From Patescibacteria group bacterium (lineage in GTDB: Bacteria; Patescibacteriota; WWE3; 0-14-0-20-40-13): 63,394 nt of DNA. Under the pieces are notes generated by a model. The model did no database searches and was not told where the DNA came from. It saw only the letters and a list, made by a program, of their open reading frames with translations. Positions 12,780-62,267 of the stretch are shown one piece after another (positions within the stretch are counted from its first letter, which is position 1; every line of letters begins with the position of its first letter). The stretch covers positions 1-63,394 of the forward strand of contig JAHINB010000017.1 of the NCBI GenBank assembly GCA_018896215.1, in the 5' to 3' direction. A program made the position numbers and the translations under genes.

Positions 12780-12796
12780 GGATAATCCCTAATCGA
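12760..12796. repeat. palindromic element, family C (GGGATTATCCC-gaatta-GGGATAATCCC)
   Basis: Perfect 11-nt arms. Contains the stop codons of both convergent genes gyrA and truB. Confidence 0.8.
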
Positions 12797-14546: not shown

Positions 14547-14558
14547 GTATTCATATTA

Positions 14559-14607
14559 GCAAATTTGACCAATTAGTCCAATTAGGCTAATTAGACAAAT
14601 TGAACCC
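14559..14607. repeat. low-complexity repeat family E (AATTAGACCAATTAGTC-type)
   Basis: gaccaattagtccaattaggctaattagacaaatt. Related copies at 14943-14987, 51349-51397, 57240-57296 and 57459-57503. Confidence 0.7.
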
Positions 14608-14942
14608 AACAAAACCCTTGGGGAACATAACAAACCTTACTTAAGTAATTTATTTTACTTAAGTTAACTTAAGATCCTTAAAATATTTAAGTTTTGCTCC
14701 CACAAACCCCAAGAGTAGAGCAAAACCCCTACACCCGCATTGTCGTTAAATGTATGTTTAACGACTACAGGGATGTGAAGTAGCTGTAAATAGGGATTTT
14801 GCGGGAATTTAGATGAATCCAAATTAATACAACTAAATACCGGGGGAAATAGCAATAATTGGTATTTCAGAAAATACTAGCAATATACTAAAACAATTAA
14901 CAATTAAAATAATTGTTCTTTGCACTTCTCCTGTATCTCAAC

Positions 14943-14987
14943 GAATTAGTCCAATTGAACTAATTGGTCTAATTAGACAAATTCCAA
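14943..14987. repeat. repeat family E copy
   Basis: gaattagtccaattgaactaattggtctaattagacaaatt. Confidence 0.7.
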
Positions 14988-16912: not shown

Positions 16913-16970
16913 TTTTTTGGGGGAGACACCCCAAAACAATTCCTTGCCTTTAGGGGTGTCTCCCCGAAAT
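16913..16970. repeat. palindromic element family A (GGGGAGACACCCC ... GGGGTGTCTCCCC)
   Basis: 13-nt arms plus flanking TTT/AAA. One of eight copies. Confidence 0.85.
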
Positions 16971-19431: not shown

Positions 19432-19471
19432 ATTGGGGTACTACCCCGTAGGGGTAGTACCCCCTCGAATT
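19432..19471. repeat. palindromic element family B (GGGGTACTACCCC-gta-GGGGTAGTACCCC)
   Basis: Encodes the last residues (..RGGTTPTG) and the stop of the ATPase gene. Confidence 0.8.
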
Positions 19472-22038
19472 TTGTATTCTCCTTCTATCTTGTTATCTAT
19501 TGATTCCGTATCTTGTTCTATTTTGGTTTCTGTTTTCCCTCTCTGTTCCTCCGCGATTGCCATGCCTAAATCAAACGGTCGCTCCACCCACTTGCGAATT
19601 CTATCTTCTACATCAGCCAACGGTCGAGAATACTTTTGACGGCTTAAATTAAGAATTTTTTCGGTGTTGTTGGTCCATTCTTCTTTTGTGGGAGGAGGAA
19701 TAGAAACACCCGAAAACGGCGCGCTGGTCATACCATCAATAATTAATTTAATGTAAAAATGGTGCGCCTCCAAATTTATTAAATCGTTTTCGGTAAAAAC
19801 CGGGGCGAACTCGGGTTCCAATATTTTGGCGTCCTGTGCGCCTAAGGTTAAAGCGATGATTGATCCCACATTGCCAAAAATTGCCATTTGCATTTCTTCG
19901 GGAATTTGCGCCGTGTATTGGTGGGTCAGATGGAGAGCCAATCGGTATTTTCGCGCTTCGGACAAAATACCCGCAAACGATTCGGAGGCAAAATTTTGAA
20001 ATTCGTCAACATACAAATAAAACGGCGTTCTGTTTTCCCAGGGCACATCCACCCTCTGCATCACGGTAAAAAAGAGCCGAGCTACGAGTAACGATCCTAG
20101 CAAGTTGCTGTTATCCTCCCCGATTCTTCCTTTTGCCAAATTAACGAGTAAGATTTTTTTGTTATCCATAATATCCGTCAAGTCAATGGTTGATGTTCTC
20201 TGCCCCAATAAATTTCTAATAGTTGAAGATGATAAAAACCTCCCCACTTTATTTTGAATTGGAGACAAAGCTTCGGATGATAACGATTGGTTGCCCTTCA
20301 TAGCCTTAAATTCCTTTTCCCAAAAGTCAATGATTACTGGGTCGTTGATGCGATGTGTAATGTACTTGCGGTAGTTATCATCCGCCAAAACACGAGTAAG
20401 CCCCAGCATTGTTGTTCCTGGAACTTCAAGCAATGTCAAAATAGCATTATTGAGCAGGTATTCCAATCGAGGACCCCACGATATTTGCCCAAAGTGTTTC
20501 TTAAAAACTGAGAGTAACCCCGACGCCATGAGATTTTTTTGTGCGGGATTAGAGCACTCCAACAAATTTAAACCCACAGGATATTGGGCATCGGAAGGAT
20601 CTAAAACAATCACATCGTTAATCCTGTTATCGGGAACATTGCGCAAAATGTGTTCCACCAGCTCACCATGCGGATCCATAACACCCACCCCATTGCCATT
20701 TTTCATATCCTGAATAATCATATTTTCAAAAATCGTGGACTTGCCCGTTCCCGTTTTTCCGACTAAATAAGTGTGGCGACAACGATCTTCGCTTTTAACA
20801 TCGTCATTTTTAATCCCAAATTTTACCTGCCGATCTCTAAAAGTGGTGCGACCGATATAGGTGCAGTTCTCGGTAGGCAGATTGATCGGCGGCTCTCCCC
20901 TTTTGGCAAGGCTCCAACTAATGCTCGGAGTTTCTACGGAAGCTGATGGTAGATGAAAAATAGATGCCAGCTCGTCGGTGGATAAAATAAAACTATCCGA
21001 AGTGGAAAATTTACGAGATGATAAATCGTCAAAGCTGGAAATCCCACTGGCTGTAAAACTGTTGAGATTGGAGGTTCCATATTGCTTAAATGAGGCAGTG
21101 AGACTTTTAAGGTGGGTGTTTGCTGTAGCCTCGTCGGGGCTGGCGACCGCAATTCTGATAATGGTTTCGAACCCCATTTTGGACAATTTTAACTCAATTG
21201 ACTCTAATTCCCCTTTTTGACCCTCGGACAAAACTGCCGCCCTTTCAGGCTCTGGTCTAGCGGGTAACTGGCGTTGTGGAATGTAAGCTTCACCGGTATA
21301 AAAAACTCTTTTGGGGATGTTTCCAAGTACCGCCATAATTTCCTCACCAAAAGATTTAAAAATATCTTTTAAACCCCAACCCGCGGATTGTGTACCCATT
21401 TTAACCATCTCCACATACTGATACCCTGTGGACTGCCAACCATCAGCGATTGGGCGAACCAAAACTTGAACAAATGCTTTACTCTTTTGACTAACCTCCT
21501 CGATTGATGAGGTTAACGCAGATAGCGGATCGACCTCAAAATCGCGAAAAGTGCGAATGGGAAAGTAATTTTCCTTAACATGCTTAAGATAGATGGATGC
21601 AAAGCAAGGAAATTTGTCATCGGTTTTTATGTAATCTGCGGTTACCGTAATCTGCGCGTTGGGATATTGGGCATAGATTTGGCTTTCTACATACGATTGG
21701 AGTTGGTGCGGTAAAGTGCAATAAAAAACCACGCCTTCGCTGTCGGCGGCAATTTCAAATGTGATGTGTTCTTGGATTCCGGGAGTAAATTTTAAAAGCC
21801 CATGTAGCGCCGAAAACATTTGCTCGGCGGCAACAGGAGCTGCCAAAAGCTCAAAATGTTCGCCTTCGATAACTTTGGGAACCTTAATAACCAAGACAGT
21901 GTCCGGGGAAACAACCAAAGCCAAGTCCGCATTCTGAAAAGATTTCTTTTTGTGACTTGTCAGCTCGCGATAGGCAAGGTATATAGAGACTGCCAGCACA
22001 CCAATTGCGATGGTAATCAATTTAAGTATTTCGTTCAT
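19441..22038 (-). CDS. membrane-anchored VirD4/TraD-like (type IV coupling protein / DUF87-type) P-loop ATPase
   Basis: N-terminal TM helix, Walker A GKTGTGKST, Walker B LYVDEFQNF, and the arrangement typical of TraD/VirD4-like hexameric ATPases. Confidence 0.75.
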   Translation of the reverse strand: MNEILKLITIAIGVLAVSIYLAYRELTSHKKKSFQNADLALVVSPDTVLVIKVPKVIEGEHFELLAAPVAAEQMFSALHGLLKFTPGIQEHITFEIAADSEGVVFYCTLPHQLQSYVESQIYAQYPNAQITVTADYIKTDDKFPCFASIYLKHVKENYFPIRTFRDFEVDPLSALTSSIEEVSQKSKAFVQVLVRPIADGWQSTGYQYVEMVKMGTQSAGWGLKDIFKSFGEEIMAVLGNIPKRVFYTGEAYIPQRQLPARPEPERAAVLSEGQKGELESIELKLSKMGFETIIRIAVASPDEATANTHLKSLTASFKQYGTSNLNSFTASGISSFDDLSSRKFSTSDSFILSTDELASIFHLPSASVETPSISWSLAKRGEPPINLPTENCTYIGRTTFRDRQVKFGIKNDDVKSEDRCRHTYLVGKTGTGKSTIFENMIIQDMKNGNGVGVMDPHGELVEHILRNVPDNRINDVIVLDPSDAQYPVGLNLLECSNPAQKNLMASGLLSVFKKHFGQISWGPRLEYLLNNAILTLLEVPGTTMLGLTRVLADDNYRKYITHRINDPVIIDFWEKEFKAMKGNQSLSSEALSPIQNKVGRFLSSSTIRNLLGQRTSTIDLTDIMDNKKILLVNLAKGRIGEDNSNLLGSLLVARLFFTVMQRVDVPWENRTPFYLYVDEFQNFASESFAGILSEARKYRLALHLTHQYTAQIPEEMQMAIFGNVGSIIALTLGAQDAKILEPEFAPVFTENDLINLEAHHFYIKLIIDGMTSAPFSGVSIPPPTKEEWTNNTEKILNLSRQKYSRPLADVEDRIRKWVERPFDLGMAIAEEQRGKTETKIEQDTESIDNKIEGEYKIRGGTTPTG

Positions 22039-22097
22039 GGTTGTCGTTCTCTCTCCTCACATTATGATGCGCATAAAATAACCCCCTCGTCAACAGT

Positions 22098-22140
22098 TTC
22101 TCCCTTCTATTCCCTCTGCTCCCTCTAATCCCTCTAATTT
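22098..22140. repeat. CT-rich repeat family F (CCCTCTAATCCCTC-type)
   Basis: Related copies at 34205-34260, 43265-43318, 23470-23565 and 54985-55020. Confidence 0.6.
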
Positions 22141-22142
22141 AT

Positions 22143-22218
22143 TGGTGCCACCGGTGGGAGTTGAACCCACAACCTCCTCCTTAGGACGGAGTTGCTCTAT
22201 CCATTGAGCTACGGTGAC
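22143..22218 (-). tRNA. tRNA-Arg (anticodon CCU), CCA encoded
   Basis: Manual cloverleaf: acceptor GTCACCG/CGGTGGC, D arm GCTC/GAGC, anticodon loop gTCCTAa, T arm GTGGG-TTCAACT-CCCAC, 3' ACCA. Confidence 0.85.
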
Positions 22219-25285: not shown

Positions 25286-25327
25286 TTATGGGGTAGTACC
25301 CCTACGGGGTACTACCCCCTTGAATTT
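25286..25327. repeat. palindromic element family B copy
   Basis: GGGGTAGTACCCC-tac-GGGGTACTACCCCC. Encodes the C-terminal ..IQGGSTP plus the stop of the rluA-like gene. Confidence 0.8.
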
Positions 25328-27011: not shown

Positions 27012-27110
27012 ATTGTTAAATTCTAATATCTAAACTCTAAATTCTAAACAAATTCAAAATTTAAAATTCAAACATCAAAACAGTTTTTGGATTTTGAAAA
27101 TTGAAAATTA
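27012..27110. repeat. AT-rich MITE-like element family D copy
   Basis: ttctaatatctaaactctaaattctaaacaaattcaaaat... Overlaps the 3' end of the DHH gene. Confidence 0.6.
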
Positions 27111-28138
27111 TCAACCACCCCCAACACCTTTCTCTCCGCCTCTTCTAAATCTATGCCAAGCAATAGTGCTGCAGAAGCCGCCTTGTGTCCCCCACCCCCG
27201 AGCGCCTTAGCGTAAATTGATGTATCCACGCCTTTTTGCGACCTAAAACTCACATGAATTCTTTTGGGTTCTTCCTCATTTAGAGTAAAGCAAAAGTCGT
27301 ATCCTCTAATATCCTTGATGGAGTCCACCGCCCCACCAACTTTATCTGGTTCAATATTGCTATCAAGGTACTCTTGATGGCTAATCTTACTATAACAAAA
27401 TCTTTTCTCATCATTAAACTTAAGATTATTATAAATGATTGAGAGATATTTTTTGTTCTCTTTGGGATAATTGTAAAGCATAATGCTAGACAGTTCTTGA
27501 TAATCCACGGTTGAGATAAGTTCTGCGACAATGCCAAGGAGCTTTGGAGAAATTTTCCATTTCAAATGCCCCGTGTCGGACAAAATACCCAGCAAAATCA
27601 TTTTTAGAATTTTCGGGTGACACCCCAAAACAGTGCCTTTAGGGGTGTCACCCGAAAATTTCCTCCCTTCCCTAAAGATTTGGTAAATTATCTCACTCGT
27701 GGAACTAGCTGTAGTATCCACATAATTTACCCCACCAAAATAAACAAGTTTGTTTCTGACGAAATAACTATTACCGGGGTGGTGATCAAGATTAATAATC
27801 TTGAGATTTGGTGGCAAGGTAAAATTGATTTTGTTATCTTTAGTGTATCTTGCCAAATCGGTAGAATCCAAAGCCAGCAGGGTATCGTATTTGGACATAT
27901 CCATTTTGTCTAACCCAGTCTCCCAATTGACAATTTTGTACTCGGGTAGCAAATCATAAAAACTCCCCATAGTATCGGCGCAAACGACTGTGGGGTTCTT
28001 GCCCATGCTTTGCAAAATGTAGTACGAGGCAAGAGCGCTTCCAAACGAATCCCCATCGGGACGGAAGTGGAGAGGGATAAGCACATGATTACTGTTTGCA
28101 AGAGCCGTTTTAACTTCAGAGAAGGTATTATTTTCCAT
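27068..28138 (-). CDS. DHH/DHHA1 phosphoesterase (NrnA-like)
   Basis: PDGDSFGS, DHH and GGGH motifs in canonical order. Confidence 0.8.
   Translation of the reverse strand: MENNTFSEVKTALANSNHVLIPLHFRPDGDSFGSALASYYILQSMGKNPTVVCADTMGSFYDLLPEYKIVNWETGLDKMDMSKYDTLLALDSTDLARYTKDNKINFTLPPNLKIINLDHHPGNSYFVRNKLVYFGGVNYVDTTASSTSEIIYQIFREGRKFSGDTPKGTVLGCHPKILKMILLGILSDTGHLKWKISPKLLGIVAELISTVDYQELSSIMLYNYPKENKKYLSIIYNNLKFNDEKRFCYSKISHQEYLDSNIEPDKVGGAVDSIKDIRGYDFCFTLNEEEPKRIHVSFRSQKGVDTSIYAKALGGGGHKAASAALLLGIDLEEAERKVLGVVDNFQFSKSKNCFDV
27611..27658. repeat. family A palindrome inside the DHH gene (in frame)
   Basis: TTCGGGTGACACCCC...GGGGTGTCACCCGAAAA is translated as FSGDTPKGTVLGCHPK. Confidence 0.85.
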
Positions 28139-29984: not shown

Positions 29985-30043
29985 TTTTCGGGGAGACACC
30001 CCTAAAGGCATTTGAATTCTGTTTGGGGGTGTCTCCCCAAAAA
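29985..30043. repeat. family A palindrome, intergenic
   Basis: TTTTCGGGGAGACACCCCTAAAGGCA...GGGGGTGTCTCCCCAAAA. Confidence 0.85.
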
Positions 30044-34204: not shown

Positions 34205-34260
34205 ATTAGAGGGTTTCATTCTGTTCCTTCTGCTCCATCTCAACCCTCTAATCCCTCATT
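34205..34260. repeat. repeat family F copy (ATTAGAGGG ... CCCTCTAAT inverted arms)
   Basis: Shares ..CTTCTGCTCC.TCT...CCCTCTAATCCCTC with 22098-22140. Confidence 0.6.
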
Positions 34261-34261
34261 T

Positions 34262-35632
34262 ATGCAAAAGCCCTTACCAATTATAAAAGACGCTTACGAC
34301 TATGCCAAATCTACCCGGGGCAACATTACTCACGCCAAAGAAACCGTAAAAGTTTTAACCCAAAACGAAATAACTGACCCGCCAACCATTGTGACTGCCA
34401 TTTTGCACGACTGCCTGTATTACGGCAAAGGAAAACTTTCCGAGATTAAAAGTTTTTTTGGAAACGATGTGGCAAACATGGTTGTGGCTCTATCTAGGAT
34501 TGAAAGAATTCACCTAACTCCAAACGACCCTAAAAATCACGAAAAAATTCGTCGTGTTATTATGTCGCTATCTTCTAATTATAGAGTCTTTTTGATCAAA
34601 ATCTCTTGCCGGTTAGCAAGACTTCGAGCGTGTGGAAAATCCAAAACCCCCGAGTGTTTGTTGGTAGCAAAACAAGCCTTGTCGATTGATGCCCCACTTG
34701 CCAAGGCATCATCGTTAAAAAACATTGCGGGAGAGTTAAACGATTTGGGATTTAAAATCTCCGAACCCTTAAAGTATAAACAATTGAAAAATCTTATTCT
34801 TGATAAGGAAGTTTTTTTAAAAGAACGACTTTTGGGCGTGAAGAACAAATTAGAGTTGCTAATGGAACAAGCAAGCGTTTCGGCAGCCATTTCTTTTCGT
34901 AAAAAATCCCCCTACTCCACCCATCTTAAAATTTTAAAATACCTAGAAAAACGCAAGATTAAAGAGTACGGCGTTGAGAAAATCCATGATCTTATAGGTT
35001 TAAGAATAATTGTCAGAACCGAAAAAGATTGCTACAAAGCGCTGGATGCAGTACAAAAAAATTGGGGGGTGGAAATTAGCGAATTTGATGACTACATTGC
35101 CCGCCCCAAACCCAACGGCTACAAATCTATTCATACAATTATAAAAGTGGGACAGGCGATGTATTGCGAAATTCAAATTGTAACCACAAAAATGGAAGAA
35201 TTTAATAATTTTGGAGGGGCATCTCACTTAGGTTACAAAAATCCCAATTGGGTTAAGACATATATAAACAAGTTTGTTTCTGACGAAATTAAAAGCGGTG
35301 ATAAAACCTCCAATTTTAATCCCTTTTCCAAAACTATTTTCACCTTTACCCCAACAGGAGACATTATAGAATTGCCAGCAGGCGCAACTTGTGTTGATTT
35401 TGCCTACAAAATTCACACCGATTTAGGTAACAGGTGCGAGGGGGCATTGGTTAATGGAATAATCAAAAAACTAGAATACGAGTTGCAAAATGGTGACGAG
35501 GTAAAAATAATCCCCTCAAAAAGAAGGCCTTCTCCAATTGCCAAATGGATTGACTTTGTCAAAACCCCCGAAGCCAAAAAGCAAATTCGCCACTACAGCA
35601 ACATATTATCGGGTACTACCCGATTCGGGTAG
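34262..35632 (+). CDS. RelA/SpoT homologue (HD-like, synthetase and TGS domains), short form
   Basis: ILHD HD-like region; synthetase DLIGLRIIV...GYKSIHT; TGS IFTFTPTGDIIELPAGATCVDFAYKIHTDLG. Confidence 0.8.
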   Translation: MQKPLPIIKDAYDYAKSTRGNITHAKETVKVLTQNEITDPPTIVTAILHDCLYYGKGKLSEIKSFFGNDVANMVVALSRIERIHLTPNDPKNHEKIRRVIMSLSSNYRVFLIKISCRLARLRACGKSKTPECLLVAKQALSIDAPLAKASSLKNIAGELNDLGFKISEPLKYKQLKNLILDKEVFLKERLLGVKNKLELLMEQASVSAAISFRKKSPYSTHLKILKYLEKRKIKEYGVEKIHDLIGLRIIVRTEKDCYKALDAVQKNWGVEISEFDDYIARPKPNGYKSIHTIIKVGQAMYCEIQIVTTKMEEFNNFGGASHLGYKNPNWVKTYINKFVSDEIKSGDKTSNFNPFSKTIFTFTPTGDIIELPAGATCVDFAYKIHTDLGNRCEGALVNGIIKKLEYELQNGDEVKIIPSKRRPSPIAKWIDFVKTPEAKKQIRHYSNILSGTTRFG

Positions 35633-36391
35633 TACCCGAATTTTTCCTATTCTAACAACAAATTATCGATGTAGGGTTTTTTGATGTCACTGTCGCCATC
35701 CAAGGGATCTATGTAAGACTCCACAAAGTCTTTATATCTTGCAACAGTCATATCGCCCAACACCTCGTCCCAACAAAGCCAACCTTCTTTTATATTTTTA
35801 TTTATGTAGTAGTAGCTAGAAAATCTATAATCTTTAAGGGAATCTTTGCTCACCATTTCCAAAGGATTTAAATGGATATAGCGAGCAAGATGTAAAAACT
35901 GCTCCCCTGTTGTAATCGGGACTGCTTTATAAATCGCTTGGTAAAGTTTACCTACACGATCATTTTTTTCATTAAAATAATTAGTGTAGTTAGTACAAAT
36001 CTTTTTTGTAAGATCTGTTAATCCCTCCTTTTTCTTTAATTTGACGAGCAGGTGGTAATGGTTAGGCATAAGACAAAACGCTAAAAGTGAGATTTTATCG
36101 TAAGAATAATTCGGGGTTACAAATATTGACTGTTTCGTCTTAGGATCTTTGCGTTCTAAAACAAAACCAGGCTCTAAATAACGCCTTAAATTATTAATAA
36201 AAACATGGTAATCCTCCGAATCTTGAAATATTACTCTTCGTTCTACCCCTCGGTTATAAACATGGTAATACGCACCTTCCGCAAAAACTTTATAGATGTT
36301 CCTTGATGGCATAGTTACAACATTAATATCCTATTTAGCAGAAGTCAATACCTAAAGCAAATATTCGGGTAGTACCCGAATCGGGTACTAC
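35608..36391. mobile_element. REPtron-like unit: RAYT gene bracketed by inverted family-B double palindromes
   Basis: Left flank 35608-35645 is CGGGTACTACCCG-attc-GGGTAGTACCCG. Right flank 36364-36391 is CGGGTAGTACCCG-aat-CGGGTACTACC, the same sequence flipped. Confidence 0.7.
35647..36312 (-). CDS. REP-associated tyrosine transposase (RAYT; IS200/IS605 Y1 HUH family)
   Basis: YHVYNRG, LMPNHYHLLV (HUH) and the YIHLNP region; about 220 aa. Confidence 0.8.
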   Translation of the reverse strand: MPSRNIYKVFAEGAYYHVYNRGVERRVIFQDSEDYHVFINNLRRYLEPGFVLERKDPKTKQSIFVTPNYSYDKISLLAFCLMPNHYHLLVKLKKKEGLTDLTKKICTNYTNYFNEKNDRVGKLYQAIYKAVPITTGEQFLHLARYIHLNPLEMVSKDSLKDYRFSSYYYINKNIKEGWLCWDEVLGDMTVARYKDFVESYIDPLDGDSDIKKPYIDNLLLE

Positions 36392-36452
36392 CTTATAGCT
36401 AAAGCGCTAAATAGCCCTTTTATGCAAAACATTGTTGTAGTAAACTTACATT

Positions 36453-38428: not shown

Positions 38429-38466
38429 GATTAGGGATAATCCCAAATTTGGGATTATCCCTATTC
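38429..38466. repeat. family C palindrome (TAGGGATAATCCC-aaattt-GGGATTATCCCTA)
   Basis: Same arms as 12760-12796. Confidence 0.8.
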
Positions 38467-39885: not shown

Positions 39886-39945
39886 ATTAGGGACGATCCC
39901 TAATACAATTCCGATCAAATGCCTCTTAAGGGATCGTCCCTAAAA
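39886..39945. repeat. family C palindrome (TTAGGGACGATCCCTAA ... TTAAGGGATCGTCCCTAA)
   Basis: Arms separated by about 25 nt. Solo arm pair at 42303-42323. Confidence 0.75.
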
Positions 39946-42302: not shown

Positions 42303-42323
42303 ATAAGGGACGATCCCTAATGG
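42303..42323. repeat. family C solo palindrome (AAGGGACGATCCCTAA)
   Basis: Identical arm to 39886-39945. Confidence 0.6.
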
Positions 42324-42423: not shown

Positions 42424-42445
42424 TTTCGGGTGACACCCGAAAAAT
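42424..42445. repeat. family A minimal palindrome (TTTTCGGGTGACACCCGAAAAA) in the lexA leader
   Basis: Arms as in 27611-27658 and 56430-56484, without a loop. Confidence 0.7.
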
Positions 42446-43080: not shown

Positions 43081-44016
43081 ATGGATTACCTTGAGATTGA
43101 AAAAAATAGAATAGACTTAAAAATACTCGAAGCGAAAAAACTTTTGCTTGATCCTGCTTTGGCAGAACTTGCCAAGGAGGAGATTGCAAGGTTAGAACAA
43201 GAGAAAACGGAATTAGAAAAAGGGGGTAGTCCGCCTTTGGCGGACTACCCCAACGATTCTGCACCTTCTTCCCTCTCCAATCCCTCTAATTCCCCTTATC
43301 CCTCTACTCCCTCTAGTTCGTGTATTTTGGAAATAAGGGCAGGAACCGGGGGCGACGAGGCCAGCATTTTTGCCAGCGAGCTTTTTAGAATGTATCAAAG
43401 GTACGCCATAAACCAAGGTTGGAAGATAAATTTGCTAGGAGAAACCAGCGCTAAGATAACAGGCGAGGGGTGTTTTGACAAATTACAGTTTGAGTCGGGG
43501 GTCCATCGTGTCCAACGGGTACCACAGACAGAATCCAGTGGCAGAATCCATACTTCCACGATAACTGTGGCAGTTTTGCCCGTAGTCACTCCAAAGGAAG
43601 TGGAAATTAAGGATGCTGACTTGATATTTGACTCGTTTCATTCCGGCGGTCACGGCGGGCAGAATGTTAACAAGGTCGAAACCGCCGTTCGGATTACTCA
43701 CAAACCCACGGGAATTGTGGTTTCCTGCCAAGAGGAACGCTTTCAACTCAAAAATCGCGAAAAGGCTCTGGAAATGCTTCGCTCTAAACTTTATCAAATG
43801 ATGCAGGAACAACACCAAACCTCTGTCAACAACCTACGAGCAACGCAAGTGGGAACTGGTGACAGAACCGAAAAAATAAGAACCTACAACTTTCCGCAAA
43901 ATAGAATCACCGATCATCGAGCCGGCTTAAGCTGGCACAATATTAAGGGGGTAATGGAGGGGGAGATTGAGAGGGTGTTGAGTGATCTTGAGGAGAAATT
44001 GTTAACCAAAGAATAA
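43081..44016 (+). CDS. prfA: peptide chain release factor 1 (short N-domain carrying repeat insertions)
   Basis: PQT tripeptide in RVQRVPQTESSGRIHTS (RF1 PxT), and GGQ in SGGHGGQNVNKVETAV. Confidence 0.9.
   Translation: MDYLEIEKNRIDLKILEAKKLLLDPALAELAKEEIARLEQEKTELEKGGSPPLADYPNDSAPSSLSNPSNSPYPSTPSSSCILEIRAGTGGDEASIFASELFRMYQRYAINQGWKINLLGETSAKITGEGCFDKLQFESGVHRVQRVPQTESSGRIHTSTITVAVLPVVTPKEVEIKDADLIFDSFHSGGHGGQNVNKVETAVRITHKPTGIVVSCQEERFQLKNREKALEMLRSKLYQMMQEQHQTSVNNLRATQVGTGDRTEKIRTYNFPQNRITDHRAGLSWHNIKGVMEGEIERVLSDLEEKLLTKE
43220..43318. repeat. family B variant (GGGGTAGTCCGCC-tttg-GCGGACTACCCC) followed by family F tract, both in frame in prfA
   Basis: Translated as KGGSPPLADYPNDSAPSSLSNPSNSPYPSTPSSS. 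Confidence 0.75.
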
Positions 44017-44105
44017 ACTCTAAATTCTAAGCGCTAAATCCTAAACAATATCAAAACTCAAAAATCAAAATACAAAATTTGTTCTGAACATTAGAATTTC
44101 GGATT
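44017..44105. repeat. AT-rich family D element copy
   Basis: ..ctaaatcctaaacaatatcaaaa...gaacattagaattt.. shares blocks with 5395-5545. Confidence 0.65.
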
Positions 44106-45343
44106 TAGAATTTACTCTCCGCAATCTCGATCGCCTTCTCCAATTGCGCGTCCTTTGTTATATCATTCTCATCATTTTTAATCTCGTAATCTGGAGTTAA
44201 ACCCACCTTGTGAACCCAAGTTTTATTAGGAGTCAGCCATTTGGCAATCGTCACATGAACACTTGCCCCGTCCTCAAAATCTTCGGAGTCTTGAATTGTC
44301 CCCTTGCCAAAACTTGTCTCGCCAACCAGTTTTGCCCCCTGGCGATCCCGCAAAGCTCCAGCTAATATTTCGGACGCCGAAGCGCTTCCACCGTTGATGA
44401 GAACTACCACAGGATATTTTGTCAGCAACCCCTTGCGCATGACATCAAGCGAAATTTGCGCTCCATTGGCATCCTCTTGATAAACCACCGGCCCCTTGTC
44501 TAAAAATTCGCTGGCTAGGTAAACTGAACCATTTAAGTACCCACCGGGATTATTGCGCACATCCAGAATTAGCGATTTTAAATTTGGCATTACCCGGACT
44601 ATCTCGGCAACCACTTTGTCCCAATCGCCATTGGTATTTTCGCCAAATGTCGAAACTTTTATGTAAGCAATCCCCTGCCCTTTATCCTGCCATTCCACTG
44701 ACTTAATTACAATTTGACGACGAACAATCGCGACATCAAAAGGCTGGTTGCTAGCTGACGGCTCTCCTCTTAGAATATTGAGCGTAACCGTGGTATTTTT
44801 AGGTCCCCTAATTTTAGCCACCGCTTCGGAAAGCGACAGCCCTAGGGCGTTTTCCCCGTCAATTTTTAGGATTTTATCCTTGGGACGAATTCCCACCAAT
44901 TGCGCTGGCGATCCTTCTAGTGGCGAGACCACAATAATCACATCGTTATCGTCTTTTCCCAGTTCCGCGCCAATTCCCTCGTACTGCCCATTTAAAGCCG
45001 AAGCAAAAGAAGCGTTTTCCACAGGCTCTAAAAATGAAGTGTAGGGATCTCCTAAAGAATTGGTCAGTCCTTTGATAGCACCGTAAACCATTTTTTGACC
45101 GTCTAGCGGTCTTAGCAAGTACTTAGTGTTTAAAATGTCCCAAACTTTCCAAAACTCGTCAAAAGCAACCGTTGTTTCCCCAACTGGAGCCACCATTTGC
45201 CTTCGGGTTACAGTAATGGGAATGGATTTTTTGCGGTCGTACTCTACCTCAAATCCCCTACGACCGAAGTAATATCCGCAACTCGTTGCGGATATTAGAA
45301 GAAGCAGAGCAAGCAGTATTTTTTGAAAGAGTTTATAAGACAT
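44105..45343 (-). CDS. ctp: S41 carboxy-terminal processing peptidase with PDZ domain
   Basis: PDZ region GSPAQLVGIRPKDKILKIDG, catalytic region NGGSASASEI with downstream Lys. Signal anchor from Met at 45343. Confidence 0.88.
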   Translation of the reverse strand: MSYKLFQKILLALLLLISATSCGYYFGRRGFEVEYDRKKSIPITVTRRQMVAPVGETTVAFDEFWKVWDILNTKYLLRPLDGQKMVYGAIKGLTNSLGDPYTSFLEPVENASFASALNGQYEGIGAELGKDDNDVIIVVSPLEGSPAQLVGIRPKDKILKIDGENALGLSLSEAVAKIRGPKNTTVTLNILRGEPSASNQPFDVAIVRRQIVIKSVEWQDKGQGIAYIKVSTFGENTNGDWDKVVAEIVRVMPNLKSLILDVRNNPGGYLNGSVYLASEFLDKGPVVYQEDANGAQISLDVMRKGLLTKYPVVVLINGGSASASEILAGALRDRQGAKLVGETSFGKGTIQDSEDFEDGASVHVTIAKWLTPNKTWVHKVGLTPDYEIKNDENDITKDAQLEKAIEIAESKF

Positions 45344-49494: not shown

Positions 49495-49570
49495 TTTTAT
49501 TTGTAATTTGGAATTTGAGAATTGGGATTTGTTTAGATATTAGAAATTAGTAATTAGAAATTTAAAATTT
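49495..49570. repeat. AT-rich family D element copy
   Basis: ..gggatttgtttagatattagaaattag.. at the 3' end of ychF. Confidence 0.55.
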
Positions 49571-50653
49571 TTATCCCCTCCCCACCCTAAACTCCACCAC
49601 ATCTCCATCTTTGACTAAGTATTCCTTCCCCTCCAACCTTGCCATTCCTTTCTCTTTAGCTTTACCCCAACTGCCGGCTTCGATGTATTTTTGATAGGAA
49701 ATGACATCTACTGCAATAAATAATCTTTCAAAGTCGCTATGGATAACACCAGCGCATTTTTGGGCGTTCCAGCCTTGTTTAAATTTCCAGGCTCGGCTTT
49801 CTTTTTCCCCTGTGGTTAGAAATGTGGAAAGCCCCAACATTTTATAAGCTTGACGAATGACTCCGTCAAGGGGCGCTTCGGTGAGTCCTAAGTCGGTAAG
49901 ATAAGCATTTCGATCTACAGTTGACAATGACGAGAGTTCAAATTCAATCTTGGCGGATACTTTCATACGGGACGATCTCATTTCATCCGGGTTCGTCCCA
50001 TTTGGGACGAACCCGATTGAATCCTCAGAAACATTTAGCACAGGTAAAATAGGTTTTAAGGTTAGCAAATTAAACCCTTGTAATTCCTCCAATTCTTCTT
50101 TGGTCCACTTCCCGTTCGCCAATAATTTCCCTGCATCGAGAACCCCCACAGCTTTTTTCAAAACATTGGGGTAGTACCCCGCAGGGGTACTACCCCCTTT
50201 CTTCCTAATCTCCTTTGAGTCCACGACCTTTGATAAAATCTCCAAATCCTTTAGCTTTAATTCCGTGAGTAGCACCTCCCTATCGCTTTCTGGATTGATA
50301 GAGCCCTCTCGAATAATTTCCGCGTCCTCAAAATCTCTTAGAAGTAGAAGGATTAGGTCGACTTCCCTGATATGGGCTAAAAACTTGTTTCCCAATCCCG
50401 CGCCAGTGGATGCACCTTTGACCAGACCAGCGATGTCTATAAATGTGATAGTTGAGTACACTTTTTTGGCAGAGTGCGAAAGTTCTGCCAATTTGTCAAC
50501 CCGACTATCTAAAACTTCGACGACTCCCGTGTTCGGCTCAATAGTAGCAAAAGGGTAATTAGCAACACAGGCTATTTGACGCTTTAAAATAGCGTTAAAT
50601 AAAGTGCTTTTTCCCACATTGGGCAACCCCACAATCCCCACGGACAAACTCAT
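49571..50653 (-). CDS. ychF: ribosome-binding ATPase YchF
   Basis: GIVGLPNVGKSTLFNA, DIAGLVKGAS and a C-terminal TGS-like domain ending DGDVVEFRV. Confidence 0.93.
   Translation of the reverse strand: MSLSVGIVGLPNVGKSTLFNAILKRQIACVANYPFATIEPNTGVVEVLDSRVDKLAELSHSAKKVYSTITFIDIAGLVKGASTGAGLGNKFLAHIREVDLILLLLRDFEDAEIIREGSINPESDREVLLTELKLKDLEILSKVVDSKEIRKKGGSTPAGYYPNVLKKAVGVLDAGKLLANGKWTKEELEELQGFNLLTLKPILPVLNVSEDSIGFVPNGTNPDEMRSSRMKVSAKIEFELSSLSTVDRNAYLTDLGLTEAPLDGVIRQAYKMLGLSTFLTTGEKESRAWKFKQGWNAQKCAGVIHSDFERLFIAVDVISYQKYIEAGSWGKAKEKGMARLEGKEYLVKDGDVVEFRVGRG
49964..50019. repeat. family C composite (GGGACGATC.. / GGGTTCGTCCC-attt-GGGACGAACCC) in frame in ychF
   Basis: Translated as ..SIGFVPNGTNPDEMRSSRMK.. 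Confidence 0.7.
50165..50200. repeat. family B palindrome in frame in ychF
   Basis: GGGGTAGTACCCC-gca-GGGGTACTACCCCC is translated as KKGGSTPAGYYPN. Confidence 0.8.
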
Positions 50654-51035: not shown

Positions 51036-52418
51036 CTACTTGTCCTGTACTTTGACACCTAACGCCTCTAACTGTTTTCTTAAACTATCCGCTAGAGCAT
51101 AGTTTTTGCTGGCTCTTGCGCGATCCCGCTGGGCAATTAGTTTTTTTGCTTCTTGCGGAATCTCTTTGACAAAGTCATCCTGATCCAGATTTAATCCCAA
51201 AACTTTGTCCCATTCTAAAAGCTTTTGTACAGCCTGCGACTGGTAACCGTTCTTTTTGGACTCGTTGACGAGCTCCCAAACTACCGCCATAACTTTAGGC
51301 ATGTTTAGATCGTCAGCTAAAGCATTAGCAAATTTTTTCTCGAAAAAATTTGCCAAATTAGACCAATTAGACAAATTAGTCAAATTCGGCCAATTCCCAG
51401 AAACAAAACCATACAATTTTTCTAACGCTTTACTACTCGCATCAAGTGCCTCCCAGGAAAAAGCGATAGTTTGCCTCCAATGGGAGCTGTAAGTATATAA
51501 TTTGTAAGCCAAGGGGTCATAACCTTTATCAATTAGAGTTTGCAAAGTCAAAAAATTCCCCGCGGATTTTGCCATTTTTTCTTCTTTTTCGGCATTTAAA
51601 AAACCCGCGTGGAGCCAATAATTTGCCATTTTGCGACCAGTTGCCACTTCGGTTTGGGCAATTTCGTTAGGATGGTGAATTTCCTTATGATCAATTGCGC
51701 CAGTGTGAATATCAAATGGGGCACCCAAATGCTTAAGCGAAATCGCCGAACACTCAATGTGCCACCCCGGAAAACCAATTCCCCACGGCGAATCCCATTC
51801 CATAGCGCGCTTTTTTCCAGAGATATTAAACTTCCACAAAGCAAAGTCGCGAGGATTCTTTCTTTCGGGATTGACATCTACACGAGCCCCTTCGATGATT
51901 CCAGAGTCTCGCAAAGACGACATCTGACCATACTCGGGAAATTTTTTAGTATCGAAGTAAATTCCATCACTTGTTTTGTAGGTTAGACCTTTTTCTTCTA
52001 ATTGAGAGATGAGACTAATTTGTTCAGGAACGGTATCGGTGGCTTTTTCCCACACAGTTGGGGGAAGCAAGTTGAGCCGTGCCATATCGCTCTTAAACGC
52101 CTTGAGGTAGAATTCAGATAATTCCCATGCGGTCATATTTTTTTCGGCAGAGGCTTTCTCTACTTTGTCCATCCCCATGTCACCATCGCCAGTAAGATGT
52201 CCCACATCGGTTACATTCATTACTCGTTTTACTTGGTAGCCAAAATAGGTTAATGCTCGAACCAGTAGGTCGTTAAAAATATAGGTACGGAGATTTCCAA
52301 TATGGGCATAGTTATAAACCGTCGGACCACAGGTATACAACCCTACATGGTTGGGTACAATTGAAACGAATTCCTCTTTTTTTCCCGTAAGCGAGTTGTA
52401 AAGTTGCAATTTATTCAT
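51036..52418 (-). CDS. cysS: cysteinyl-tRNA synthetase
   Basis: YTCGPTVYNYAHIGNLR (HIGH region) and KMAKSAGN (KMSKS). Confidence 0.95.
   Translation of the reverse strand: MNKLQLYNSLTGKKEEFVSIVPNHVGLYTCGPTVYNYAHIGNLRTYIFNDLLVRALTYFGYQVKRVMNVTDVGHLTGDGDMGMDKVEKASAEKNMTAWELSEFYLKAFKSDMARLNLLPPTVWEKATDTVPEQISLISQLEEKGLTYKTSDGIYFDTKKFPEYGQMSSLRDSGIIEGARVDVNPERKNPRDFALWKFNISGKKRAMEWDSPWGIGFPGWHIECSAISLKHLGAPFDIHTGAIDHKEIHHPNEIAQTEVATGRKMANYWLHAGFLNAEKEEKMAKSAGNFLTLQTLIDKGYDPLAYKLYTYSSHWRQTIAFSWEALDASSKALEKLYGFVSGNWPNLTNLSNWSNLANFFEKKFANALADDLNMPKVMAVVWELVNESKKNGYQSQAVQKLLEWDKVLGLNLDQDDFVKEIPQEAKKLIAQRDRARASKNYALADSLRKQLEALGVKVQDK
51349..51397. repeat. family E repeat in frame in cysS
   Basis: ccaaattagaccaattagacaaattagtcaaattcggccaatt is translated as NWPNLTNLSNWSNLAN. 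Confidence 0.75.
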
Positions 52419-53022: not shown

Positions 53023-54584
53023 ACAGGAACCTCTCCATCAAACACCTCCCAGGCTTCTTTTGCTTTTGTTGACTCCGACTGCTCGGGTTCTATATTTTTG
53101 TCGCTTAAATCCTTTTCTACCGGCAATTTTTTGCCCAACACCACGGCAAGCAAAACCGGTCTACCCAAAATTTCCGATGCGGCATCCTCGACAATTCTAC
53201 GGCTGGATGGAACCGACAGCCTTTCTTTGTGAAAAGAGTAAAAAGCCTCGACAATTAAACGGTCTTTATCAATCCCCACAATCTTGCAAGAGCGCAGTAG
53301 CGCCTCAACCGAGTGGTTTCTAGGTCTTACCGCTTCGTAAAGCGCCTCTTTGGTAAACGGGGCTTTTCCAATTCGATCGGGTACTACCCCTATTGTCTCT
53401 TTTTTCGGGGAGACACCCCTAAAGGCATTGGGATCCTGTTTTTGGGGTGTCTCCCCAAAGTACCCGCCCGCCTCCTCTGTTTCTTCTTTCTTAAAATCAA
53501 CAGTGGCTACTAACAACGGCAAATGTCCCACCGAGGCGTAACGAATCTGCCCTTTTGCCTCCAGAAATTTCTTGATAACAGTTGAAATAAATTCTATTGA
53601 GACCTTCTCCAGCCCCTCTTTGGCAAATTCCGTCTCCCCCACCCCCAACTTTTCCATCAGCAATGCTTTCAAAAACTCCAAAAAATTATCCACCCAGTTT
53701 TCGGCGGTAATTCCACCTTCAAAAATTTTCTCTAGGTATAAAACCCCCGCTTTAGCATTTCCAGTTGATAAATTTAGAAGAAAATCAATAAATTGATCCG
53801 AATCTGATGTAACAACCAAATCGTCCACCGTCACCTTGCCAAAAACCACCTGCTCCAGCATGGTTTCGGAGTCTCTAAAGCCCCCTTGCGAGGCTTGAGC
53901 AATTTTTTTAAGGTCGCCATCTGTTAAATCGGGAATTGGCGTTCCCTCTTTTTTTTCGGCAGTGATAATGCGTTCCAGCTTTTTCGTGATATCTATGATG
54001 GAAGCCCGCTTAAATTCAAACTTTTGGCATCGGCTTCTGATAGTATCGGGGACTTTTCTACTTTCGGTAGTACACAAAACAAAGACAGCGTGCTTTGGCG
54101 GCTCTTCTAGGGTTTTTAAAAGAGCGTTAAAGGCCTCGGCAGTTAACATGTGCACCTCGTCAATAATGTAGACCTTGTATTTTGCTTGAGCGGGCGACAA
54201 AATTATGCGATCCCGCAGAGTTCTAATGTCATCTATTCCGCGGTTGCTGGCGGCGTCAATTTCTATCACATCAATAAAACTGCCGTTTTCGATAGCTTTA
54301 CAGGTTGGACATTCTCCGCAGGGATCGTGTTTATCGGGGTCGAACCCCAATGAAAGATCGGGTGCCTTCTTAGGGGTTCGACCCCTATGTTCCCCAATGT
54401 TTTCGCAATTCAATGCCTTCGCCAAAAGCCTTGCCATTGTCGTCTTTCCCGACCCCCGAGGTCCATAAAAAAAGTAGGCGTGGGCAAAGTTTTTTGTCGC
54501 GATCGCCGAAAGAATTGCTGTTGACAGCGATGCAGAACCTAAAAACTCGCTAAAATTTTTGGGGCGGTATTTGGTATAGAACAC
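53019..54584 (-). CDS. dnaX: DNA polymerase III subunit gamma/tau
   Basis: GPRGSGKTT, Zn module CGECPTC, DEVHML, LLKTLEEPP and SRC. Confidence 0.93.
   Translation of the reverse strand: MFYTKYRPKNFSEFLGSASLSTAILSAIATKNFAHAYFFYGPRGSGKTTMARLLAKALNCENIGEHRGRTPKKAPDLSLGFDPDKHDPCGECPTCKAIENGSFIDVIEIDAASNRGIDDIRTLRDRIILSPAQAKYKVYIIDEVHMLTAEAFNALLKTLEEPPKHAVFVLCTTESRKVPDTIRSRCQKFEFKRASIIDITKKLERIITAEKKEGTPIPDLTDGDLKKIAQASQGGFRDSETMLEQVVFGKVTVDDLVVTSDSDQFIDFLLNLSTGNAKAGVLYLEKIFEGGITAENWVDNFLEFLKALLMEKLGVGETEFAKEGLEKVSIEFISTVIKKFLEAKGQIRYASVGHLPLLVATVDFKKEETEEAGGYFGETPQKQDPNAFRGVSPKKETIGVVPDRIGKAPFTKEALYEAVRPRNHSVEALLRSCKIVGIDKDRLIVEAFYSFHKERLSVPSSRRIVEDAASEILGRPVLLAVVLGKKLPVEKDLSDKNIEPEQSESTKAKEAWEVFDGEVPV
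53376..53459. repeat. family B half-copy plus full family A palindrome, in frame in dnaX
   Basis: Translated as YFGETPQKQDPNAFRGVSPKKETIGVVPD. Confidence 0.8.
54334..54388. repeat. family C variant (GGGGTCGAACCCC ... GGGGTTCGACCCC) in frame in dnaX
   Basis: Translated as HRGRTPKKAPDLSLGFDPD, immediately before the Zn module. Same arms as 55288-55381 in pth. Confidence 0.8.
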
Positions 54585-54930: not shown

Positions 54931-54986
54931 TCTTTCGGGGAGACACCCCTAAAGGCAAGGAATTGTTTTGGGGTGTCTCCCCTAAA
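54931..54986. repeat. family A palindrome, intergenic
   Basis: TTTCGGGGAGACACCCCTAAAGGCA...GGGGTGTCTCCCCTAAA. Confidence 0.85.
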
Positions 54987-55001: not shown

Positions 55002-55640
55002 CTAAATTCCTTTAAAGATTGGGTTCTTTACAATTCTTTCGAACACTCTTTGCAATTCCTCTAACTCCTCGGGGTTAAAATCGTTTAGCACAAAATCCTC
55101 GGCTTTTTGTTCGTGATGATTGTAGTGATGTGGCGCCACCCCAATTCTTATTCTCCAAAAGTCCCTTGTGCCTAATTCTTCGATGATTGATAAAACTCCT
55201 TTGTGACCGCTAGCGCTAACTCCAAAGGAAATTTTGAACTTACCCAAGGGAATATCCATATCGTCATGGACAATGACAAAGTCATCATTGGGGTCGAACC
55301 CCAATACACCTGCCCGCAACGCTTCGCGTAGCGAGGCGGGCGGGGGATCGAATGCATTTTTCATAGGGGTTCGACCCCTTAGATCATCCAGTCCCTGACG
55401 GGACGATCCCGAAGTAAAGCGGAGGGTTCGTCCCGAATGAGAATGTCTCCCCAAAATTCTTAAAACTTCTCCTCCCGACTGGTTCATAAAACAGTTGGTT
55501 TTAATGCCTTTTTCACCCGAAAAACAGTTTAAAAAATCCGCAAACAGATGACCCGCATTATGGCGAGTCTTTTCATATTTTCTCTCTTTATTCCCCAAAC
55601 CAATTATAAGCATAGCTTCTGAGCTAACTATCTCCTTCAT
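55002..55640 (-). CDS. pth: peptidyl-tRNA hydrolase carrying a ~50-aa repeat-derived insertion
   Basis: LIIGLGNKERKYEKTRHNAG, MNQSGG, VHDDMDIPLGKFK and GHKGVLSI. Confidence 0.88.
   Translation of the reverse strand: MKEIVSSEAMLIIGLGNKERKYEKTRHNAGHLFADFLNCFSGEKGIKTNCFMNQSGGEVLRILGRHSHSGRTLRFTSGSSRQGLDDLRGRTPMKNAFDPPPASLREALRAGVLGFDPNDDFVIVHDDMDIPLGKFKISFGVSASGHKGVLSIIEELGTRDFWRIRIGVAPHHYNHHEQKAEDFVLNDFNPEELEELQRVFERIVKNPIFKGI
55288..55439. repeat. two adjacent family C elements (GGGGTCGAACCCC..GGGGTTCGACCCC; GGGACGATCCC..GGGTTCGTCCC) in frame in pth
   Basis: Translated as SGRTLRFTSGSSRQGLDDLRGRTPMKNAFDPPPASLREALRAGVLGFDPN. Confidence 0.8.
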
Positions 55641-57209: not shown

Positions 57210-57239
57210 TTTCTTATATTTTCCTAAACTTCTTCTTAT

Positions 57240-57296
57240 CAAATTAGACTAATTAGTCAAATTAGTCAAATTAGACCAATTCTTTAATTAGACCGA
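57240..57296. repeat. family E repeat, intergenic, at the boundary of the accessory array
   Basis: aaattagactaattagtcaaattagtcaaattagaccaattc. Confidence 0.7.
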
Positions 57297-60959: not shown

Positions 60960-60989
60960 ATATGAATAGTATACTACAACCAACAGAAC

Positions 60990-61041: not shown

Positions 61042-61048
61042 CTATTGA

Positions 61049-62221: not shown

Positions 62222-62267
62222 ATGTTGTTTTGATTATAATCATTGATACATATAAATGTCAATTAGT

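Follow-up and report, generated by a model that had tools for sequence, protein, structure and literature searches.

A probable REPtron/TIRtron-type system in a WWE3-like Patescibacteria genome: a Y1 tyrosine enzyme gene bracketed by hairpin repeats

Genes for HUH/Y1 tyrosine enzymes that lie among hairpin repeats have been studied almost exclusively in Proteobacteria, as repetitive extragenic palindromic (REP) sequences with their REP-associated tyrosine transposases (RAYTs) and the inverted REP pairs called REPINs. In the classification of Quentin, Siguier, Chandler & Fichant 2018 (PMC6006769, Table 1), class 2 proteins carry the motif Y---NP and TnpA-IS200 the motif Y---Q. Subclass 2.1 corresponds to the TIRYT enzymes of the TIRtrons (Di Nocera et al. 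2013, PMC3733652) and also to the Group 1 RAYTs of Bertels (PMC5581495). Its motif set combines NH[YF]H and Y[IV]HLNP with an SS tail and with FQ instead of WQ, in a protein of ~238 aa (PMC6006769, Table 1). No REP-like sequences were found beside genes of subclass 2.1, members of 2.1.2 have heterogeneous tails, and class 2 genes were associated with large genomes (PMC6006769). RAYTs behave much like housekeeping genes (PMC5581495). The two surveys that define the Y1 classes, one of them PMC6006769, covered no genomes of the candidate phyla radiation (CPR). Here we describe a Y1 gene and its palindromes on contig JAHINB010000017.1 of a Patescibacteria group bacterium; the window is the whole stretch of 63,394 nt (63 kb) that was analysed, with a G+C content of 43%. 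An initial annotation of the sequence had proposed a RAYT with REP-like palindromes in a CPR-like genome, and the origin agrees with this, as DnaB is 64-70% identical to proteins of 'candidate division WWE3' or 'Patescibacteria group' and YchF points the same way. We consider that the locus is probably a REPtron/TIRtron-type system in a WWE3-like Patescibacteria genome, consisting of a vertically inherited Y1 enzyme and a cognate element that brackets its gene.

Concerning the enzyme, the 221-residue open reading frame (ORF) with an HUH motif and a YIHLNP region that had been pointed out is intact (Table 1). Its translation starts with MPSRN and contains CLMPNHYHLLV, with H85-Y-H87 as the HUH motif, and RYIHLNP with the catalytic Y145, followed by the conserved SS at residues 165-166. 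A search with Y1 profiles had been suggested, and the Pfam profile PF01797 (Y1_Tnp) matched residues 72-147 with 34.5 bits against a gathering threshold of 23 (E 2.5e-8). H85-Y-H87 and Y145 are invariant in an alignment of 20 sequences including the window protein, in which the invariant stretches are YH.YNRG, CLMPNH.H, Y..Y.N, RYIH.NP, SS and W. The same residues align to the HMH and DYIYINP motifs of E. coli RayT. The family consensus reads PNHFH, LFQG, RYIHLNP and SS, and the window protein has NHYH, LYQA, YIHLNP and SS at these positions. The C-terminal tail extends ~70 aa beyond the IS200/IS605 TnpA core, and no helix-turn-helix (HTH)-like domain (Bac_DnaA_C, HTH_23, HTH_28) was detected in the protein with Pfam at E<=1. 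By its motifs the protein would belong to class 2 of TnpA-Y1 and fits subclass 2.1 (TIRYT, Bertels Group 1), an assignment made by comparing motifs with Table 1 of PMC6006769.

An AlphaFold (AF2) model of the protein was obtained with a pLDDT of 87.8 and a pTM of 0.85. The top Foldseek match in the PDB, at E 3e-7 and a TMt of 0.65, was 4ER8_A, E. coli TnpA-REP in complex with a REP hairpin, followed by the transposases of ISDra2, IS608 and Sulfolobus IS200; the top 29 PDB hits were all Y1 transposases. A family-profile sequence search of the PDB returned nothing at E<=0.01, and at E<=10 the structure 4ER8 again ranked first (E 0.011) with HUH, Y and SS aligned. An archaellin match, obtained when the single Y1 sequence was searched against the PDB, was spurious. 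In an hhalign comparison with E. coli RayT (E 8.5e-4, 18% identity), HUH, Y---NP and the (F/Y)S(S/T) tail were in register. Sequence profiles thus link the Y1 family to TnpA-REP weakly, and it was the fold search that gave a clear answer. Homologues are numerous: more than 7,800 were scored among 90% clusters, and of the clusters at 50% identity 16,503 reach E<=1e-3 and 120 reach E<=1e-30; the named ones in the 90% clusters are called 'transposase' of Patescibacteria, Woesebacteria or Saccharimonadales.

The gene is bracketed by palindromes that we designate family A. The unit is a 13-nt imperfect palindrome, (G/C)GGGT-A[C/G]T-ACCC(C/G), with a 5-bp GC-rich stem and an asymmetric 3-nt centre, and a doublet consists of a unit and its own reverse complement 3 nt away. 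Both brackets are doublets of the subtype CGGGTA[C/G]TACCCG. The downstream bracket contains the TAG stop codon of relA/spoT (35630-35632); the bracket itself is followed by ATTTTT and looks terminator-like for relA on the + strand. In the upstream bracket the outer unit is slightly decayed. A repeat finder identified 42-nt arms (35607-35648 and 36356-36397) that are 86% complementary. The flanks had been described as one double palindrome in opposite orientations. The loop (ATT), which matches between the two, and the AAT(T/A)TTT tails on the gene side do support an inverted relation, but it is not a simple inversion: the doublets are nearly palindromic, so that a C-then-G doublet reads C-then-G on either strand, and what distinguishes the brackets is which of the two unit types comes first (head-to-head in one, tail-to-tail in the other). 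In single-stranded DNA (ssDNA), each of the five doublets of the window folds into a perfect hairpin of 11-14 bp closed by a 3-nt loop; the free energies range from -11.8 to -16.9 kcal/mol and the z-scores from -4.7 to -6.5. At the Rfam gathering thresholds only three tRNAs were found in the window, and the hairpins match no curated RNA family.

The bracket is not confined to this locus. We compared four close relatives (L001-L004) and 80 GTDB species-genome loci, mostly Patescibacteria metagenome-assembled genomes (MAGs), the best identity to the window Y1 protein among the GTDB matches listed being 45%. The test for a bracket was a non-trivial 10-mer common to both 150-nt flanks, and random 660-nt segments of the same loci were used as controls. 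The flanks shared such a 10-mer in 57 of the 71 homologous genes with both flanks present, compared with 64 of 1540 random segments (4.2%), and a perfect hairpin with a stem of at least 9 bp was present in 46 of 143 flanks versus 18 of 850 random segments. GGGTAsTACCC units occur on both sides of the Y1 gene in L001 (87% identity) and L002/L003 (70%); the gene of L004 (49%) is bracketed by another palindrome, GGGTGACACCC. The design of the flanks is constant and their sequence lineage-specific: a short GC-rich stem with an asymmetric 3-5-nt centre, of the form GGGT-NNN-ACCC or AAGGT-NNN-ACCTT (examples are AGGGTCAGACCCT, AAGGTGAGACCTT, AGGTGCGACCT, CAAGGTTCGACCTTG and CTAAGGGTCCGACCCTTAG), often as a unit and its reverse complement. 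Doublets are also found in the flanks of L005, L007, L011, L014, L021, L025, L032 and L071. The flanks change with the protein: median protein identity is 55% for pairs of loci with a common bracket 9-mer and 42% for other pairs. Paralogues of one genome or one 20-kb locus carry different flanks (L011/L014, L039/L041, L024). Taking together the 57 of 71 genes against 4% of controls, the excess of hairpins and the co-variation of protein and flank, the bracket is general across this Y1 family. Away from the bracket, a cognate word is found 0.45 times per 10 kb of its own locus, 16 times as often as in non-cognate loci (0.028). Dispersal is strong in the organism of the window and weak in many relatives.

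Two side observations were made in this comparison. A sub-clade of Y1 genes (L022, L033, L049, L055, L061, L062; N-terminus MPSRI.PF.NG) has a different end architecture: its flanks are direct repeats 24-42 nt long in which small hairpins are embedded (such as TATGTCCACCCTTGGGGTGGATTGGTATTGACACCTGCGGAT), and not inverted palindromes. Several MAGs titled 'uncultured Gammaproteobacteria bacterium' (L010, L013, L016, L017, L021, L023, L024 and others) carry a Patescibacteria-type Y1 gene with CPR flanks, and these record titles look like taxonomic mislabels.

The position of the Y1 gene is conserved along with its brackets. The order hisS-Y1-relA/spoT is common to the window, L001 and L002/L003/L100. 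Between L001 and the window, identity is 87% for Y1 and 82% for HisRS; between L002/L003/L100 and the window it is 70% for Y1, 55% for HisRS, 48% for RelA, 45% for a metallo-beta-lactamase (MBL)-fold protein and 85% for DnaB. Neither a second Y1 gene nor tnpB was found within the 63-kb window. Since synteny is kept and Y1 is as conserved as its neighbours, the gene behaves as a domesticated RAYT rather than as an insertion sequence.

The palindromes of the bracket belong to a dispersed family. When GGGTAGTACCC was searched with at most one mismatch, 22 strand-hits corresponding to 11 sites were obtained in the window; dinucleotide shuffles gave a mean of 0.54 and a maximum of 4, and none of 100 reached 22. 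A comparison with shuffles had been proposed along with the palindrome, and for this window it came out clearly in favour of a true repeat. The copies that had been noted away from the gene were all recovered, as three doublets, a single unit and a variant hairpin (Table 1). The variant shares its first 8 nt with the family-A unit, and its membership is uncertain. Beyond the brackets there are 7 family-A half-sites in 62 kb of the window, and the overall density is ~1 unit per 6 kb.

Table 1 Features of the window (nt positions in the 63,394-nt stretch)
Feature	Coordinates	Sequence or strand	Context
Y1 enzyme gene	35647..36312	minus	intact 221-aa HUH/Y1 tyrosine enzyme, RAYT/TIRYT class
Downstream bracket	35610..35638	CGGGTACTACCCG-ATT-CGGGTAGTACCCG	9 nt past Y1 stop; -16.9 kcal/mol
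Upstream bracket	36366..36392	CGGGTAGTACCCG-AAT-CGGGTACTACC(tt)	53 nt upstream of Y1 start; -11.8 kcal/mol
Dispersed doublet	19435..19463	GGGGTACTACCCC-GTA-GGGGTAGTACCCC	holds stop codon of 865-aa VirD4/TraG-like ORF
Dispersed doublet	25290..25318	GGGGTAGTACCCC-TAC-GGGGTACTACCCC	holds stop codon of RluA-like gene
Intragenic doublet	50168..50196		in frame in YchF GTPase gene; peptide GGSTPAGYYP, ~aa 152-161
Single unit	53378..53390	CGGGTACTACCCC	inside C-terminal part of dnaX, beside family-B doublet
Candidate variant hairpin	43222..43254	GGGGGTAGTCCGCC-TTT-GGCGGACTACCCC	in frame in peptide-release-factor gene (GGSPPLADYP)
VirD4-like ORF	19441-22038	minus	865 aa; TrwB/VirD4-type coupling-protein and HerA-like ATPase domains
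Family B palindromes	16920-16965, 27614-27654, 29990-30038, 42428-42438, 53407-53456, 54937-54982, 55922-55967, 56434-56479		
Further unit families	12762-12789, 38434-38461, 39890-39940, 42307-42317, 55400-55434; 54337-54384, 55291-55377; 49989-50014		
AATTAG-type arrays	14539-14601, 14930-14983, 51333-51395, 57219-57290, 57447-57500	both orientations	apparently intergenic
CCCTCTAAT-type arrays	22094-22143, 34208-34257, 43255-43313		9-nt period
AT-rich periodic repeats	5411-5537, 27012-27097, 44009-44114, 49506-49568, 59297-59439	both orientations	between genes
Perfect 52-nt direct repeat	60990-61041 / 62267-62318		1277 nt apart; within two minus-strand ORFs (60417-61052, 62268-62984) 1.3 kb apart

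The initial annotation had placed most copies at the 3' termini or in the interior of ORFs, and this proved accurate. Three of the five doublets overlap a stop codon (VirD4-like, RluA-like and RelA/SpoT, all Pfam-supported gene calls), and because the unit contains TAG, the doublets supply the stop of the upstream gene. One doublet (YchF) and the single unit (dnaX) are in frame inside genes, which leaves the upstream bracket as the only purely intergenic doublet of the window. A doublet can be read through in two of its three frames. In relatives, approximately 8 of 15 doublets lie inside long ORFs, including those of LeuRS (in the editing domain), TopA (topoisomerase I) and FemAB, and doublets are also found there at gene ends. 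The doublets were the top terminator-like matches in a terminator scan; those at 35609-35639 and 19463-19435 are on the sense strand, directly after the gene and with T-rich tails, and a T tail is missing from the sense strand of the doublet at 25290. Terminator-like sites as a whole were not enriched in the window (24 versus 22.3 expected).

We examined the turnover of the copies. In a collection of 241 million metagenome records, no more than 21 stretches carry the exact doublet pattern, 20 of them on low-GC contigs, and the contigs with the pattern include orthologous Y1 loci. Three of them (L087, L103, L105) are from the same organism as the window, with 99.5-99.9% identity, and have kept the copies, among them the doublet at 19435-19463 in the 99.5%-identical L105. 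At greater distance, in the syntenic L095/L092 (~68% nucleotide identity), differences are seen in both directions: at the orthologous junction L095 lacks the doublet of position 25290, and it has a doublet of its own for which the window offers no counterpart. An AT-rich array resembling those in Table 1 replaces the family-A doublet at this L095 junction (1690-1800).

At the orthologous YchF site, the window has GGGGGTAGTACCCC-TGC-GGGGTACTACCCC (GGGGTAsTACCCC), and the WWE3 genome L108 has GGGGGCAGTGCCCC-GCA-GGGGCACTGCCCC (GGGGCAsTGCCCC) at the same site (10437-10465). GGGGCAsTGCCCC is the dispersed family of L108 itself, with 6 half-sites in 21 kb, and the two palindromes differ at four stem positions, all compensatory. 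L110 carries a decayed version. A clean empty YchF site was not found: orthologues at 72-76% identity carry a related palindrome, and in more distant ones the site is occupied by an unrelated loop that is about as long. As the 72-76%-identity orthologues already carry a palindrome, the change in YchF corresponds to replacement or homogenisation and not to simple insertion. From these sequences we read the difference as probable homogenisation of, or re-insertion at, a tolerated site; an independent origin of the palindromes is a possible alternative. Two further sites of this kind may be mentioned. YchF of L108 contains a second intragenic unit (10657) that is absent from the window, and one site in FemAB has the GGGG...CCCC subtype in L090 and the CGGG...CCCG subtype in L098.

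By analogy with E. coli TnpA-REP and the TnpA proteins of IS608 and ISDra2, we infer that the Y1 enzyme cleaves and moves the hairpins. The enzyme would bind a hairpin that forms in ssDNA, for instance at the replication fork, and cut beside it with Tyr145. A 5'-phosphotyrosyl link would result, and H85 and H87 would coordinate the Mg2+. Rejoining of the strands could then lead to hairpin units being excised, copied or homogenised around the chromosome. Copies would persist where they are tolerated, directly after genes, where they would provide a TAG stop and sometimes a terminator-like hairpin, and also in frame in variable protein loops. As the near-identical contigs display no insertion or excision difference, the activity of the enzyme, if any, must be slow. 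A wider proposal, which we put forward as a conjecture that may well turn out to be wrong, is that the Y1 clade across Patescibacteria is a long-term vertical partner and not a parasite. The enzyme would continually rewrite and homogenise the units, including those in essential genes, so that orthologous sites such as the YchF loop would show the current consensus of the resident enzyme, and streamlined genomes would tolerate or exploit dense units as stops, terminators and loop peptides.

Several observations weigh against our interpretation of the locus as a REPtron/TIRtron-type system. Concerning the enzyme, the window protein reaches 52 bits with NCBIfam NF047646, the RAYT equivalog, for which 80 bits are required (the scores are 43-82 bits for nine relatives and 179 for E. 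coli RayT), the WQ motif is replaced by YQ in the window protein and FQ in the family, and hhalign with E. coli RayT gave a probability of only 24%. The RAYT designation of the initial annotation is thus sustained by the fold, closest to 4ER8, and by the class 2 motif Y---NP, and not by the equivalog profile or the WQ motif. Concerning the repeats, no GT[AG]G guide was found at the foot of the hairpins, the feet being A/T-rich without a conserved tetranucleotide, and the bracket copies (CGGG...CCCG) are of another subtype than the three dispersed doublets of the window (GGGG...CCCC). The REP/RAYT arrangement that had been proposed is supported, with the bracket present in the window as in 57 of 71 loci; it differs in the lack of a GTAG tag and in the TIRtron-like motifs. 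A further exact copy of the bracket word is present within 10 kb on either side in only 21 of the 57 bracketed loci; in most relatives the palindrome is barely dispersed, and flanks without a family are common. The copy numbers of the Y1 gene and of the repeat refer to the 63-kb window, and no doublet insertion or excision difference was found against the near-identical contigs L087, L103 and L105. Finally, several doublets are terminator-like, and a host function could maintain them without the enzyme.

This last point leads to the explanation that the hairpins are mainly host elements under selection, such as terminators, mRNA 3' stabilisers or protein-binding sites, which the enzyme does not move; the Y1 gene would then happen to lie between two of them or use them in its own regulation. 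Three doublets do lie at gene ends, and in E. coli secondary roles of this kind are known for REPs (PMC3733652). Host function does not explain why 80% of the genes have a two-sided, lineage-specific bracket that co-varies with the protein, nor the in-frame copies in YchF, dnaX, LeuRS and TopA, nor the presence of four unit families in one window, and the doublet at 25290 without a sense T tail and the count of terminator-like sites near expectation also argue against it. We regard it as unlikely, and an explanation by terminators alone was rejected, as only some doublets qualify, no enrichment is seen and the intragenic copies do not fit. A different possibility is an ordinary IS200/IS605-type insertion sequence, in which gene and flanks would be mobile together as an autonomous unit, with the flanking hairpins as its subterminal left and right ends and the scattered palindromes as solo ends or copies resembling miniature inverted-repeat transposable elements. 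It would account for a Y1 HUH enzyme with subterminal hairpins on both sides, for a large and patchy family (the 16,503 clusters) whose members NCBI names 'transposase', and for distant homologues in other gene contexts, as in L004. We rejected this reading and consider it very unlikely in view of the synteny and conservation of the gene, its Y motif and the lack of a tnpB. The hisS-relA position was kept, with Y1 as conserved, while housekeeping neighbours fell to 48-85% identity; the motif is Y---NP and not Y---Q; there is a single Y1 copy in 63 kb; and paralogues within a genome are divergent and differently flanked instead of near-identical.

We give least credence to the proposal that the units resemble DNA uptake signals, enriched through a dependence of CPR organisms on DNA uptake and unrelated to Y1, and hold it to be extremely improbable. 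The DNA uptake sequences (DUS) of Neisseria and uptake signal sequences (USS) of Haemophilus form inverted pairs after genes and have in-frame copies inside genes. The distribution in the window, with short words, inverted pairs at 3' ends and in-frame copies, resembles theirs. A tight Y1 bracket that co-varies with the protein would not be expected of uptake signals, however, nor would at least four unrelated unit families in 63 kb, a density of family A of only about one unit in 6 kb, or the use of different words at the same site by close genomes. Each of these rivals covers a part of the observations, and none explains the two-sided co-varying bracket together with the synteny and the intragenic copies.

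Family A is one of several repeat families in the window. In total GGGN5CCC occurs 52 times (14.3 expected), and there are ~40 units in 63 kb from at least four families. Family B is commoner than family A and consists of GGGGAGACACCCC / CGGGTGACACCCC with the reverse complement ~15-25 nt away and TTTT...AAAA feet. One of its doublets folds at -23 kcal/mol, and its sequence is similar to what flanks the Y1 paralogue of L004 (49% identity). It has in-frame copies in dnaX, ProRS (twice) and a DHH-family gene (peptide FSGDTPKGTVLGCHPKI). The DHH-family gene and its L095 orthologue differ at the family-B copy by gaps of 8 and 7 aa in and just before the repeat-encoded stretch, with differing flanking residues, and the alignment appears compatible with insertion but is not clean. 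Further unit families of the same design are GGGATWATCCC, GGGACGATCCC, GGGTCGAACCC and GGGTTCGTCCC, with some intragenic copies (in Pth, dnaX and YchF). Y1 genes at other CPR loci have comparable cores in their flanks (GGATTATCC in L023/L051, GGTTCGACC in L014/L025). No Y1 gene for the other palindrome families was found in the window, and their cognates, if any, lie outside it. Besides the palindromes, the window contains tandem arrays that repeat every 9 nt and are either AATTAG(A/T)C(A/C)-like (such as CCAATTAGACCAATTAGACAAATTAGTCAAATT) or of the CCCTCTAAT type. The array of the latter type in the release-factor gene directly follows the variant hairpin and encodes the low-complexity stretch SAPSSLSNPSNSPY. 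AT-rich periodic repeats (TCTAAAyTCTAAAC...) and a perfect 52-nt direct repeat are also present (Table 1).

To what extent such a system was already known in these organisms was examined by full-text literature searches, in which no account of a REP/RAYT or TIRtron system was found for Patescibacteria or the CPR. The initial annotation was aware of no such description, and these searches agree with it; the gene family itself is routinely annotated as 'transposase' or K07491 in genomes of this kind. One preprint lists K07491 matches only, in the archaeal phylum Nanobdellota, which is compared there with the CPR. The locus extends the logic known from REP/RAYT studies to an ultra-small CPR genome. 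A single-copy Y1 gene between its own co-varying hairpins appears to be typical of a large Patescibacteria clade. Repeats are abundant, and many of them lie in frame within essential genes. The clade thereby offers a broad, sequence-diverse natural set of enzyme-hairpin pairs with which to address how such enzymes choose their DNA, and bears on whether these systems are selfish or domesticated. For annotators of CPR genomes, ORF ends and protein 'insertions' may be repeat-derived.

Taking the described systems in turn, the TnpA proteins of the IS200/IS605 group (IS608, ISDra2) have the same HUH/Y1 fold and recognise ssDNA hairpins at the ends of their elements. In contrast to the window Y1, they have Y---Q, a core-only protein of ~150 aa, frequently a tnpB, and multiple near-identical copies. 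The E. coli REPtron (TnpA-REP, that is RayT/YafM, 4ER8; subclass 2.2, Bertels Group 2) provides the best structural match, and HUH, Y---NP and the FS(T/S) tail align. In both cases a single-copy gene (here, one in the window) lies between its own hairpin repeats in inverted order, and the repeats are dispersed, often as inverted pairs and, in E. coli, mostly downstream of genes. On the other hand, protein identity is 13-18%, the window protein lacks WQ and its hairpins lack a GTAG guide, the units are 13 nt and not ~35 nt, with a 3-nt spacer and perfect hairpins, and many window-type copies are intragenic. Without a GTAG guide and a WQ motif, the recognition and cleavage rules of E. coli are not simply transferable to this enzyme. 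The five window doublets qualify as REPINs (Bertels & Rainey 2011) in being inverted unit pairs with a short spacer that form a long hairpin. They differ from REPINs, as do the doublets of relatives, in that their location is not strictly extragenic. Rickettsia palindromic elements are ~100-150 bp long and occur in frame in genes. To our knowledge, no dedicated transposase is known for them. They, and the intragenic REPs mentioned in PMC3733652, share with the window the presence of short in-frame palindromes that code for loop peptides in conserved genes, including replication genes; the window units differ in being 13 nt or ~29 nt long and tied to a Y1 gene.

The TIRYT enzymes of subclass 2.1 correspond to the window protein in motif set and length (~220-240 aa), and also in low copy number and wide distribution. 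TIRtrons, as described in PMC3733652, have inverted-repeat flanks without GTAG, some of them 'double palindromic', form dimers and are moderately abundant, and a bracket with weak dispersal, as described there, is what many of the Y1 relatives display. The TIR motif GGGGWSAS fits family B (GGGGAGAC...) and the flanks of many relatives, L004, L005 and L007 among them (flank sequences in relatives include GGGTCAG, GGTGAG and GGGTGAC), but not the flanks of the window Y1 gene (GGGTAGTA; GGGTAsTACCC). Further differences from subclass 2.1 are that no C-terminal HTH or Bac_DnaA_C domain is detectable in the window protein and that 80% of the genes in the Patescibacteria clade are bracketed, whereas Quentin et al. 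found no REPs. Since the motif set fits subclass 2.1/TIRYT, 'TIRtron' is as apt a name as 'REPtron'. Under either name, the locus represents a new lineage for a known kind of system, distinguished by its short units without GTAG and by the unusual proportion of copies that lie inside genes.

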